Source: a virus. Taken from it: DNA of 23,432 bases. The notes beneath the pieces were generated by a model. The model was not told the origin of the DNA. It saw only the letters and a program-made list of their open reading frames with translations, and did not search any database. Shown piece by piece: positions 18,455 through 20,117 of this stretch. The DNA is taken from UHGV virus genome UHGV-0174115. One strand, written 5' to 3'. Numbering within the stretch: the first letter of the stretch is position 1; each line of letters starts with the position of its first letter. The position numbers and the translations under genes were made by a program.

Positions 18455-18829
18455 TCAGGCCGCTCCAACAGGGTGAATAAATGCCATATCATCCCCTAAC
18501 AATCGTGGGTTTTGACGATCAAGAAGGCGATATTCTTTACCACGTTCATCAACCACAACATCACCCCGATCAGGAACAAATCGCGGTTCAAAACTCTGAC
18601 TATCCATAATTACCATCGTTGTGGTTATTCTGGTCATAGTAGTCGGATCCCACTTTTCTAATGGGTAAATATAACCACGACAGGTGTGTGATTCAGTAAC
18701 GGTTGTACCCGGTAATGTAGGATTAGACGGGTTGGGAACTGTTGTCACACGTTTTACCGTCAAATCTTCACCTACTTCAGCAAGTGCACGAGTAACACCT
18801 TTCAGGACACTTTGACGTTTGTCTGCCAT
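18455..18829 (-). CDS. Head closure / head-tail adaptor-like protein (by position)
   Basis: ~124 aa; ATG 18829 overlaps upstream TGA. Confidence 0.4.
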   Translation of the reverse strand: MADKRQSVLKGVTRALAEVGEDLTVKRVTTVPNPSNPTLPGTTVTESHTCRGYIYPLEKWDPTTMTRITTTMVIMDSQSFEPRFVPDRGDVVVDERGKEYRLLDRQNPRLLGDDMAFIHPVGAA

Positions 18830-19239
18830 CACCGTTCACCCTCGTTAAGTGCACGACCACCGCTTTCAAGTGTTACAGGTGGGTTGTCGAACTGACCACG
18901 TTGAATAGCAGGTTGCATACCAGCGCCAGTTAATGTAGCTCCACCAACACCCATAAAACTACCTAACAAACCGCCACCTGAATCAGCGCCAGTATTAATA
19001 CGTAAAATAAAATCTTTTTTAAGTTTATTCCAGGCGTCTGCTGACTGACTACTGCTGAGTGAGATCGGACCTACTTTAATATCAGTATCGTTGCTGGCAA
19101 TAGACGCCATATAATCACAGAGAGCGACGCAAATACTGAGAGGATTTGTATAACCGTTGTCAATGTACCACTGAATTTGTTCATCAGTAACATCAGGGAC
19201 ACTGATCAAATAACGAATACCTTCAACTGTAATAGCCAT
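18829..19239 (-). CDS. Hypothetical structural (connector-region) protein, 136 aa, Gly-rich C-terminus
   Basis: Start taken as ATG 19239 (AGGTGA 4 nt upstream); the longer track ORF (to 19413) would read through an intrinsic terminator hairpin. Confidence 0.4.
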   Translation of the reverse strand: MAITVEGIRYLISVPDVTDEQIQWYIDNGYTNPLSICVALCDYMASIASNDTDIKVGPISLSSSQSADAWNKLKKDFILRINTGADSGGGLLGSFMGVGGATLTGAGMQPAIQRGQFDNPPVTLESGGRALNEGER

Positions 19240-19278
19240 GTGATCACCTGTGAGAAATGTTTTCGTTATATTAGCACG

Positions 19279-19304
19279 AAAAAAAGCCGTCTTAAACAGA
19301 CGGC
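19279..19304 (-). terminator. Intrinsic terminator (GCCGTCT-gttta-AGACGGC then U7 on minus-strand RNA)
   Basis: Plus strand reads aaaaaaaGCCGTCTtaaacAGACGGC; on the minus strand a 7-bp GC-rich stem is followed by 7 T. Lies at the 3' end of the non-coding island, ~40 nt upstream of the next gene start. Confidence 0.6.
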
Positions 19305-19328: not shown

Positions 19329-19408
19329 GTTTTACATAACTGGTCATCCACACCTGACGTCCCAACATACCCCTATGCGTGACACGTGAATAACCAGTTA
19401 TGTAAAAC
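19329..19408. repeat. 16-bp perfect inverted repeat (gttttacataactggt / accagttatgtaaaac) separated by 48 nt
   Basis: Arms at 19329-19344 and 19393-19408 read directly; spacer contains the palindromes gacgtc and cacgtg. Confidence 0.7.
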
Positions 19409-19718
19409 GACACGCAGTTCAGGATGTTTCACAACATGCTTTACCCACGATTTGCGGCTTTCCCGCCAGCAAGATAAGGATCACCTCCTTATCAGCGAGT
19501 GTTTGGTTGCAGTGCCAGGCGCTTATCTTCTGGTTGTTTCTGAGAACTGCAATTCACCACAACGATAAGAGCACTGAGATGTATGATAATCGTCGCAGCA
19601 CCACTTTAAACAACTCAATGCTCTTACCTGTTGTGTGCCGGTTACGTTTATCCGGCGTCTTTCGACCGATTAAGTGGTAGTGTCTGCTATGCAGTTCTGT
19701 CACTGACTTAACAATAGG

Positions 19719-20072
19719 TCAAGAATAGTTATATGTCAAGCCTTGTGATTCACACCATTCAGCAGCGGCACTTTTACTGCTGAATGATTCTGAATTCATC
19801 GGCATACCCATAACATAAACGTTATAGGTTTTTGGCGCGTCACGTCGGATTTCAGCCGCAGTGGTTGATGCCGATTCTTCGGTTGCTACAGTCACTGGTT
19901 CTTCAACGGTCACAGTAGCTGGTTCAATGTGGCGCATACGCACAAGGGCATTTAAAACAGCCGGGATAGCTTTTGATGTTGATACTTTATCGCCAGCGGA
20001 CATCTGTTTACCGTTCCACAGCATCGGACGGGTGAAAACATATTTCAGTGACGGATCATATGAATTACGCAT
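19719..20072 (-). CDS. Hypothetical protein (117 aa) downstream of the major capsid gene
   Basis: ATG 20072 with GAGG 9 nt upstream, just after the capsid-gene terminator; the longer track ORF (to 20315) would overlap the capsid gene 3' end. Confidence 0.5.
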   Translation of the reverse strand: MRNSYDPSLKYVFTRPMLWNGKQMSAGDKVSTSKAIPAVLNALVRMRHIEPATVTVEEPVTVATEESASTTAAEIRRDAPKTYNVYVMGMPMNSESFSSKSAAAEWCESQGLTYNYS

Positions 20073-20087
20073 GATTTTAACCTCATG

Positions 20088-20117
20088 AAAAAAAAGGGGC
20101 AGCATAAGCCACCCCTT
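20088..20117 (-). terminator. Intrinsic terminator after the major capsid gene
   Basis: On the minus strand an imperfect stem (4 G:C pairs, two mismatches, 2 more pairs, loop of 4) is followed by T8; lies 20 nt past the capsid stop. Confidence 0.55.

Follow-up and report, generated by a model that had tools for sequence, protein, structure and literature searches.

Why does a phage genome carry an exact complement of the 3' end of 16S ribosomal RNA (rRNA) at a site to which no gene is attached? The question is raised by the virus genome UHGV-0174115, of which a stretch of 23,432 nucleotides (nt) was analysed (the window). It represents a Sashavirus/9NA-like siphophage and is locally 99% identical to Escherichia phage KarinMuster_Bas82. 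The plus strand reads GGATCACCTCCTTA at positions 19478-19491, which is identical to the final 14 nt of E. coli rrsH (L133 1900-1913), and RNA of the minus strand carries UAAGGAGGUGAUCC at the same positions. Comparison with other phages and prophages indicates that this match is the 5' part of a conserved structured RNA family of Enterobacterales phages, which is apparently undescribed so far. We tentatively favour the reading that the match acts as an extended Shine-Dalgarno (SD) sequence, poorly translated or not translated, which docks 30S subunits on a structured phage RNA.

Sequence reading and pattern search located GGATCACCTCCTTA once in the window, and no second match was found on either strand with up to two mismatches allowed, a tolerance at which dinucleotide shuffles yield an expectation of 0.09 matches. 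By arithmetic, the chance expectation of an exact 14-mer match is ~1.7e-4 for both strands. The observed match is far outside chance. An earlier note, made from the sequence alone, had reported a perfect match to the 16S rRNA 3' end with a chance of about 1 in 10,000, and had described it as a super-SD on the transcribed (minus) strand. All three statements held, and the SD on the transcribed strand is exceptionally long.

The SD sequence can form 14 contiguous pairs with the last 14 nt of E. coli 16S rRNA, with duplex energies of -25.8 to -26.7 kcal/mol. The tail of 16S rRNA past helix 45 comprises 13 nt. When 22-nt tiles of the whole window were compared with the 16S tail on both strands, the site yielded the strongest duplex (-26.7 kcal/mol; mean of all tiles -7.9, standard deviation 2.8 kcal/mol). 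For 23 plausible gene starts of the window, anti-SD energies between -1.5 and -11.6 kcal/mol were obtained (median -6.9), with -7.9 kcal/mol for the ribosome-binding site (RBS) of the major capsid gene. Even the strongest of these 23 gene RBSs is thus surpassed more than twofold by the 14-nt site.

The SD sequence forms the 5' edge of an element of ~80 nt, which extends from 19493 to 19413 on the minus strand and consists, from 5' to 3', of the extended SD, a linker, the hairpin P1, the dinucleotide AA and a composite P2/P2b/P3 hairpin. Its parts in the window, including a possible mini open reading frame (mini-ORF), are as follows:

19478-19491, minus strand: extended SD sequence UAAGGAGGUGAUCC, perfect complement to the last 14 nt of 16S rRNA
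19473-19493, minus strand: predicted RNA hairpin GAUAAGG-[AGGUGAU]-CCUUAUC, in minimum free energy and centroid folds
19467-19475, minus strand: linker AUCUUGCUG, near-invariant, with UUG at 19472-19470
19454-19466, minus strand: hairpin P1, GCGG-GAAAG-CCGC, 4 bp with a GNAAG pentaloop
19413-19449, minus strand: composite hairpin P2/P2b/P3 with the GNRA tetraloop GUGA as cap at 19432-19429
19419-19472, minus strand: possible mini-ORF from UUG to UGA, 17 codons (MLAGKPQIVGKACCETS), peptide not conserved

The family consensus of the linker is (A/U)UCU(U/G)GCUG, located 2-5 nt past the end of the duplex, and no complement to AUCUUGCUG was found in the rrn operon. The consensus of P1 is RCGG-GNAAG-CCGY. 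In the composite hairpin, an internal loop separates P2 (6 bp) from P2b (2 bp), and a mismatch separates P2b from P3 (5 bp), which carries the GNRA cap. The covariance model of the family matches the window at 19406-19475 (minus strand) with 59.5 bits and an E value of 1e-10. The 6-7-6 palindrome of the earlier note (ATAAGG/atcacct/CCTTAT at 19474-19479, 19480-19486 and 19487-19492) was recovered and grows to 7 bp with the additional pair G19473/C19493. In the corresponding window hairpin, a fold prediction without covariation support, the 5' half of the SD would lie in the stem and GGUGAU in the loop.

In an intergenic alignment of Sasha, Bas82, AVIO78A, PDP46, 9NA and SP069, the block from ACACUCGCUGAUAAGGAGGUGAUCC to ...CUGAACUGCGU is almost invariant, and its flanks are replaced or deleted among these six 9NA-like phages. 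A sensitive BLAST search with a query of 111 nt detected the same block, beginning exactly at the SD, in Klebsiella Carvajeviruses (~92% identity), in Jedunavirus myophages (76-78%) and in the P22-like Proteus phage Brookers. The element was also found in Salmonella phage CF-SP1 (Swiduovirus) and in at least 150 contigs of IMG/VR. At least 120 IMG/VR contigs, mostly lambdoid prophages, contain the exact core CTTGCTGRCGGGNAAGCCGYAA; the lambdoid copies are encoded on the late-gene strand, with the terminase genes on one side and the lysis cassette or morons on the other. Among species-representative genomes, 21 contain the core; 19 of these are true members by covariance model (62-88 bits), all from Enterobacterales, and the matches in Pantoea and Pseudomonas genomes are due to chance and lie inside coding sequence. 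All 100 loci searched have one copy each. Conservation in relatives, which the earlier note had proposed as a check, was therefore found to extend well beyond close relatives. The element is a portable RNA module whose function is probably intrinsic to the RNA.

The covariance model was built from 60 sequences and aligned 100 matches, 84 of them distinct; the alignment is fitted to the model, and members were retrieved with a pattern fixing P1 and the linker. Standard pairs account for 92.4% of pair cells, a share that drops to 24-46% on shifting the 3' partners by 1-3 columns. Changes on both sides of a pair were observed in 237 cells versus 76 ± 8 in shuffles, a number reached by none of 500 shuffles. 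Four of the six P2 pairs and all seven P2b/P3 pairs feature compensatory changes. The closing pair of P1 varies (A-U 72, G-C 10, G-U 1), and the remaining P1 pairs are invariant, in part since the search pattern required them. Two P2 positions are mostly U-G and G-U, which would be A-C mismatches on the other strand, indicating that the functional molecule is the minus-strand RNA.

Complementarity to 16S rRNA is a trait of the family. Nearly all of ~81 distinct upstream variants keep 10-14 pairs to the 14-nt 16S tail. One tally of the variants resulted in a median duplex energy of -19.3 kcal/mol (range -15.0 to -25.8), a second one in -19.5 kcal/mol with one outlier, in which an inserted hairpin shifts the SD outside the scanned 30 nt. 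Shuffled sequences reach -6.5 ± 2.6 kcal/mol on average, and -15 kcal/mol or lower in 0.4% of trials. The 9NA-like solution is the perfect UAAGGAGGUGAUCC; other members use GAGGAGGUGGUCCA (one G-U pair), CAGGAGGUGAUCC or GAGGAGGUGGUCC, the bulged forms AAGGA[U]GGUGAUC and GGAGGU[U]GAUC (one bulge each) or AAGGCGGUGAUC (one mismatch). As the variants use different sequence solutions, complementarity rather than one sequence is preserved. The partners with which the SD can pair inside the RNA also differ: the window uses CCUUAU, many lambdoid members AUCUU(GC), Carvaje AGCGAAUCAC, and other members upstream UAACCCC or CUUCUC. Since the partner is not constant, selection acts on the ability to pair with 16S rRNA, with some sequestering partner retained. 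In the L014-type subfamily, GGUGAUC and CUAUCUUGCUG are separated by an additional hairpin of 16 nt, and the single-stranded path is 10 nt as elsewhere. Over 173 contexts, the predicted probability of being paired is 0.66 for the 5' half of the SD versus 0.46 for its 3' half (GGUGAUC), so that the predicted ensembles lend modest support to a seed exposed in the loop.

The ORFs able to use the site start at UUG 19472 (17 amino acids) and GTG 19484 (21 amino acids). The short ORFs claimed by the earlier note are thus present, and its statement that no ORF is attached is correct in the sense that there is no conserved protein-coding ORF. The frame (AUC)-UUG-CUG-RCG-GGN-AAG-CCG is open in every member, and the part common to the peptides is MLxGKP alone, which is dictated by hairpin P1. 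The codon after CCG is UAA with an A-U closing pair of P1 and CAA with a G-C pair, which identifies the stop codon as a by-product of RNA pairing; most members therefore have an ORF of 6 codons, and lengths of 9, 12 or 17 codons occur in the remainder. In targeted IMG/VR scans, the first position of UUG was never A, G or C, which leaves no AUG, GUG or CUG. At the second position 30 contigs differ, nearly all of them with UGG; they belong to several subfamilies and are true members by covariance model. The third position has one variant. Among distinct sequences, the codon before UUG is AUC in 145, UUC in 13, GUC in 3 and AUU in 1, with no AUG found in the scans, and the codon pairs are AUC-UUG (126), AUC-UGG (18) and UUC-UUG (13). 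By sequence reading, AUC/UUC is located 6-8 nt and UUG 9-11 nt past GGAGG. The better-placed codon is thus no start codon, and the only legitimate start is weak, distant and dispensable. On the sequence level, these facts argue against a conserved, efficiently translated mini-ORF, which we consider unlikely.

Based on these results, a mechanism can be proposed for the favoured reading. The extended SD would pair with the whole single-stranded 3' tail of 16S rRNA, with GGUGAUC, partly exposed in the hairpin loop, acting as pairing seed, and AAGGA kept in the stem by the downstream (C)CUUAU/AUCUU. Pairing of the 30S subunit would open the SD hairpin and clamp the subunit on the RNA, with P-site-compatible codons (AUC/UUC, then UUG/UGG) that provide no efficient start. 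The outcome would be a long-lived, poorly or non-translating 30S-RNA complex and no protein synthesis, and P1 and the GNRA-capped P2/P3 would belong to the same selected unit. We infer the actual binding of 30S, the seed-and-melt order and the biological consequence. Ribosome capture or sequestration, one of the roles listed in the earlier note, is consistent with the data and is the leading idea, with the rreB RNA discussed below as a precedent. The consequence is probably post-transcriptional and could consist in protection or turnover of the phage transcript or in ribosome access to cargo genes, which would be similar to rreB and to the STAB-SD or mini-ORF stabilisers discussed below; a roadblock on the RNA and an action on ribosomes in trans are further possibilities. 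We consider it improbable that a trans-acting, ribosome-directed phage RNA clamps the anti-SD tails of host 30S subunits and reprogrammes or protects ribosomes during infection. Such an RNA would be an abundant folded transcript with its own strong promoter in Jeduna- and Swiduoviruses and possibly in the window and, if true, would constitute a phage-host interaction of an undescribed kind. In a milder version, phages would use the element as a portable leader, a 'ribosome anchor' placed ahead of accessory or anti-defence cargo, e.g. a Tad2-like gene.

Several points weigh against a docked, poorly translated SD. The seed-in-loop arrangement agrees with 66% of the 173 contexts, and this is a thermodynamic prediction only. 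Retrieval patterns required the P1 core, which makes the conservation of core and linker partly circular; SD, P2 and P3 were not required. A second retrieval without core requirement (pattern GGTGATC...GTGGCTAAGCAC) yielded a near-invariant ATCTTGCTGACGGGTAAGCCGTAA after a variable spacer, among mutually close type-A relatives. The contexts are heterogeneous (a gene 11-26 nt on in ~80 of 133 loci, a terminator in 34 of 133, some copies standalone), and no single consequence in cis fits all of them. UUG is a legitimate start codon and present in ~88% of the variants, and AUC, a near-cognate start of low strength, shares its frame; the mini-ORF may therefore be translated at a low level. In addition, a ribosome bound at the 5' end protects downstream RNA far less in E. 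coli than in Bacillus (PMC3997798), and the consequence known for STAB-SD (see below) may not be transferable to these hosts.

Among the rival explanations, the most serious one is that the SD is the RBS of a translated mini-ORF (UUG or AUC, M(L)LxGKP...), where the act of translation stabilises or regulates the transcript, e.g. via a stall at Pro-stop. This is doubtful, although UUG follows the end of the SD duplex by 2-5 nt in nearly all members, the open frame mostly ends with Pro-UAA and the change from UUG to UGG would be merely missense if AUC were the start. RBSs that protect mRNA have been reviewed (PMC3997798), with the six-codon mini-ORF whose RBS is reported to protect the espADB mRNA of enterohaemorrhagic E. 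coli (EHEC) from RNase E as a model, and rreB itself is weakly translated (PMC5711450). However, AUG and GUG are absent at both codons in ~165 distinct sequences in spite of being one base change away, UUG is lost in 18 variants, and UUC replaces AUC in 13. The GGAGG-UUG spacing of 9-11 nt is beyond the optimum, and the position of the stop codon follows the A-U versus G-C covariation of P1, resulting in ORFs of 6-17 codons. Substitutions between Sasha and 9NA in the mini-ORF are mostly non-synonymous (three out of four). A rather improbable alternative regards the purine tract as a strand of the RNA's own fold, or as a protein or RNA binding site, with 16S complementarity as by-product. In predicted folds the tract is indeed usually paired with UAACCCC, CUUCUC, CCUUAU or AUCUU, and a hairpin inserted between SD and linker is a typical junction of folded RNAs. 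Still, the partner in cis differs by subfamily, whereas 16S complementarity is kept in all of them, including GAUC(C), which has no constant partner. Bulged or mismatched variants also keep 10-14 pairs to 16S rRNA, and sequence reading revealed no complementary GAUCACC within the element. The CAAGGAUG of type-A members resembles a CsrA site. A CsrA sponge was rejected based on a hand count of three GGA motifs in the 429-nt window RNA and 4-5 in the ~500 nt of Jedunavirus ZCEC13; as ~8 per 500 nt are expected by chance, GGA motifs are not enriched.

Two further explanations assign the site to termination control or to DNA. A cis-acting antiterminator of the HK022 put type, allowing read-through of the terminator at 19304-19286 into the head-tail connector genes, would be compatible with the roughly similar size and shape (~70 nt, two stem-loops), with the strong terminator found 35-115 nt after the element and before essential genes in 9NA-like phages, and with a downstream terminator in 34 of 133 loci. 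We regard it as very improbable nonetheless, since covariance model R1, run with filters off on HK022 24000-32000, reached 5.8 bits (E value 1.2) at best, and known put sites lie just downstream of early promoters, in contrast to the late/structural or lysis-terminase position of the element. What follows most members is a gene, not a terminator, and the mechanism leaves the conserved 16S complement without a role. Terminator coupling as a general trait was rejected on the same count of loci. The leader-peptide attenuator considered in the earlier note did not hold up either: the terminator is located 35-115 nt past the stop codon, and a terminator within 330 nt is limited to 34 of 133 loci. 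In the window, 115 nt separate the stop codon from the terminator stem, with an unrelated insertion in between, and on sequence reading no alternative antiterminator pairing was seen between stop codon and terminator. A DNA-level operator or protein-binding palindrome (ATAAGG-N7-CCTTAT), likewise proposed in the earlier note, or a chance match, is scarcely credible. The 6-7-6 (7-7-7) inverted repeat exists and has GATC at its centre, but outside the 9NA/Sasha group the palindrome is absent; the Carvaje, Jeduna, P22-like and lambdoid members keep the 16S complement without it, and the G-U pairs in the adjoining helices point to RNA on one strand. Chance is opposed by an expectation of ~1e-4 and by conservation of the motif in unrelated phages. 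Of the suggested roles of the palindrome, that of a hairpin is retained at the RNA level as a prediction; it is not general, other members sequestering the SD with different partners. A group I intron (the flanks are not exons), an RNase III site (the helices are too short) and a prfB-like frameshift site (no ORF across the site) were rejected as well.

Rfam 15, searched with gathering and permissive thresholds against the window, an L012-type locus (L012) and seven representative loci, returned nothing relevant, the matches being tRNAs elsewhere and sub-threshold noise from microRNAs and small RNAs. The core sequence was not found in the searched literature, and none of the GenBank records of members annotates the element as an RNA. 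Pas small RNAs are unrelated and restricted to E. coli. The closest analogue is rreB/rreR of alpha-proteobacteria (Hahn et al. 2016/17, PMC5711450). This mRNA is 165 nt long, and its 17-nt SD is followed by an ORF of 14 amino acids that begins with GUG. It co-sediments with 30S; the length of the SD and the lack of an AUG start keep its translation weak, and one half of the SD is enclosed in a hairpin that leaves a seed single-stranded (PMC5711450). In both RNAs, the SD spans the whole single-stranded 16S 3' tail (17 nt in rreB, 14 nt in the element) and is partly buried, leaving a seed exposed (predicted for the element), and both have a tiny ORF that does not start with AUG. The element of some hosts also shares with rreB its own sigma-70-type promoter and terminator and an adjoining tRNA gene. 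There is no sign of homology, however, and phylum, length and architecture differ. The element is borne by phages and prophages in Enterobacterales, has two additional covarying hairpins and is often a leader directly before variable cargo genes. Its frames of 6-17 codons do not encode a conserved peptide, and the start is sometimes lost. Strong binding to 30S was demonstrated for rreB and is predicted from sequence here. Homology to rreB/rreR is therefore unlikely, and given the missing conserved peptide the element is said to 'work like' rreB rather than being filed as a member.

The STAB-SD of Bacillus thuringiensis cry3A binds 30S without initiating and blocks RNase J1 (Agaisse and Lereclus 1996, via PMC4113751). 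This SD-like sequence lies in an untranslated RNA region, close to the 5' end of the transcript that it stabilises, and pairs with the 3' end of 16S rRNA so that the bound 30S protects the transcript. The element would resemble it in its pairing and in not directing initiation; a start codon is absent there, while the element never has AUG or GUG, yet a weak UUG in ~88% of the variants. STAB-SD differs in being a short motif without adjoining conserved hairpins and in acting against a 5'-3' exonuclease, RNase J1. To our knowledge, Enterobacterales do not have this enzyme. In EHEC, the RBS of a mini-ORF was reported to protect espADB mRNA from RNase E (Lodato et al. 2012, ref 98 of PMC3997798). 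This is an enterobacterial leader mini-ORF, comparable to the 6-7-codon MLTGKP frame of most members; it is, however, reported as a translated unit with a conventional RBS, whereas the SD of the element is far longer, its start weak or absent and its fold conserved. The HK022 put antiterminator RNA has ~70 nt and two stem-loops (PMC9378689). It is likewise a phage RNA and the element is, in some genomes, located upstream of terminators, but put has no 16S complement, another genomic position and no similarity by covariance model. ROOL and GOLLD RNAs are often found near tRNA genes in phages. The ORF-less unit resembles them in being unusually structured, phage-borne and sometimes located beside tRNA genes; it differs in having no Rfam match, in being smaller and modular with a variable upstream domain, and in that only the ~80-nt SD element is common to all members.

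If the docking reading is true, many Enterobacterales phages and prophages carry a dedicated RNA device with near-maximal pairing to the 16S tail that is uncoupled from protein synthesis. Carriers include virulent Salmonella, E. coli and Klebsiella phages of therapy collections, e.g. BASEL phage Bas82. The rreB/STAB-SD idea of non-initiating SD-30S complexes would then extend to Gamma-proteobacteria and viruses. For genome annotation, the family would be an unannotated RNA that several GenBank records cover with probably spurious coding sequences (CDSs). With E. coli K-12 and Salmonella LT2 as hosts, it provides a tractable system for the effect of a clamped 30S on RNA in a Gram-negative cell, possible effects being on stability, Rho access, expression of neighbouring cargo and ribosomes in trans. 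As a compact natural part with a very high predicted 30S affinity, it is also of possible interest for synthetic biology.

In the window, the site lies within a stretch of ~480 nt without credible gene on the transcribed (minus) strand. This stretch is flanked by the gene for a 117-amino acid protein (19719-20072), located downstream of the major capsid gene, and by the gene at 18829-19239, the first of those leading to the annotated neck and tail-terminator genes. The element is thereby placed in a ~420-nt ORF-less stretch between capsid and head-tail connector genes. Further features around it are:

19711-19739, minus strand: predicted sigma-70-like promoter TTGACA-17-TATTGT, 10 of 12 matches
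19556-19636, minus strand: long hairpin by fold prediction, upstream domain of the same ORF-less RNA
19329-19408, minus strand: insertion of ~80 nt, a hairpin with 23-nt arms between element and terminator, outside the conserved element
19279-19304, minus strand: intrinsic terminator GCCGUCUGUUUAAGACGGC (stem 19304-19286), then U7, kept in all 9NA-like relatives

The promoter is a candidate start of a ~420-nt ORF-less transcription unit, and TTGACA promoters of the same kind were found upstream of homologous units in CF-SP1 and ZCEC13. The terminator is annotated as such in Sasha. The 429-nt RNA from promoter to terminator has a predicted fold of -152.5 kcal/mol, corresponding to z = -5.6 compared to shuffles. 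The module at 19556-19636 recurs in the CF-SP1 leader, where the order of modules is the same, and in part in Jedunavirus. Judging from its modules, the whole ~420-nt ORF-less RNA may represent a modular larger non-coding RNA family.

The long hairpin AACAGGUAAGAGCAUU.../...AGUGCUCUUAUCGUUGU is common to CF-SP1 and Jedunavirus as well. An upstream module at 19612-19668 consists of GGUCGAAAGAC, a GCCGG...CCGGC hairpin and CACACAACAG. Matches of ~90% to this module were found in many further phage records, mainly from Salmonella phages of ~45 kb; 14 such records were among 120 matches listed, and all 14 match the 19612-19668 stretch alone. The insertion at 19329-19408 has arms at 19329-19351 and 19386-19408 that form a 91% complementary inverted repeat. 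Sasha-like phages have this insertion, 9NA, SP069 and Carvaje do not, and it resembles a small inserted hairpin or an element similar to miniature inverted-repeat transposable elements. Escherichia phage PDP46 (L006) features an 83-nt insertion in this intergenic RNA (alignment A1 columns 170-252), which contains a duplicate CCGGAUAAACGUAACCGGCACAUAACAG module and a GGUGAAUACGCAGGCUGAUGCGU hairpin like the one downstream of the Jedunavirus element. The RBS of the next gene in the window (19239-19251, minus strand) reads AGGUGAUCACAUG. It has the 11-mer GGUGAUCACAU in common with type A, the commonest form of the element, which has AUC at the position of that AUG. A second strong intrinsic terminator with a 10-bp stem followed by U7 was found directly after the major capsid gene (20094-20117, minus strand) and is annotated in Sasha too; the pair of terminators suggests graded attenuation along the late operon.

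Annotation of the region differs between records. The downstream CDS is drawn over the terminator into the RNA region in Bas82_0039 (PQ850612), 9NA_042 (KJ802832) and PDP46_0047 (PQ783785, PDP46_0046/0047), and one record has a CDS on the opposite strand. Sasha has no CDS annotated in the region, and both Sasha and SP069 annotate a 136-amino acid form starting at the AUG equivalent to window position 19239. The CDS calls crossing the terminator or lying on the opposite strand are probably over-extended or spurious.

In other genomes, the neighbourhood of the element is variable. A terminator is located within 330 nt in 34 of 133 loci, namely in 9NA-like phages and some prophages, and in ~80 of 133, P2 is followed after 11-26 nt by the start of a gene that has its own SD. 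The downstream cargo comprises phrog_6581 (~60 loci), DUF2560 and terminase-small-subunit-like proteins, among others, and an IMG/VR prophage (L045) carries a Tad2-like gene (Thoeris anti-defence 2, PF11195) ~24 nt downstream of the element. The element marks an accessory-gene slot. In Jedunavirus ZCEC13, it lies in the middle of a ~500-nt ORF-less unit on the strand opposite to the flanking baseplate genes, bounded by TTGACA-17-(TG)AATTAT and by a GC hairpin followed by U10. CF-SP1 has a homologous leader of ~400 nt after TTGACA-17-TAGATT, again on the strand opposite to its neighbours and with the upstream modules of the window in the same order, which precedes an ORF of 57 amino acids and then a terminator; by its hydrophobic sequence, the product looks like a small membrane protein. 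In two phage groups, the element is thus part of a unit that contains no ORF or almost none, runs opposite to the neighbouring genes and has a consensus-like promoter and a terminator of its own, which argues for a function of the RNA itself. Strand orientation was judged from annotated examples, as raw-ORF statistics were too noisy.

A few observations concern rRNA- and tRNA-like sequences and hairpins near the element. ARAGORN detected no tRNA or transfer-messenger RNA in the window, and a total of three tRNAs in 3-kb stretches taken around the element at each locus. Only one of these is beside the element, a tRNA-Ser gene of the Klebsiella phage Carvaje (L007, 1092-1179), which ends ~25 nt before it. 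In an IMG/VR Sasha-like contig (L107), a remnant resembling a tRNA T-arm, GGUUCGAUUCC, was found just upstream of the element. ZCEC13 (L008) contains 40 nt at 1324-1363 that are 82.5% identical to 16S helix 11 (E. coli 243-282), with an E value of 3e-6 against one rrn operon. This stretch features compensatory stem changes and belongs to the same ORF-less unit as the complement of the 16S tail. The idea of a 'mosaic of 16S fragments' was dropped because this helix-11-like stretch is the sole segment with significant 16S similarity and is absent from the window and all other loci. In L012-type loci, ~45-70 nt upstream of the SD, the conserved hairpins GAAGCUCUUCACUGAGGGGCUUC and UUCC-CCCGACA-AGGAA precede many lambdoid copies, and in some loci the GAAGCUCUUCACUGAGGGGCUUC hairpin is a bona fide terminator with a U-run (GGGGCUUUUUAAUGG).

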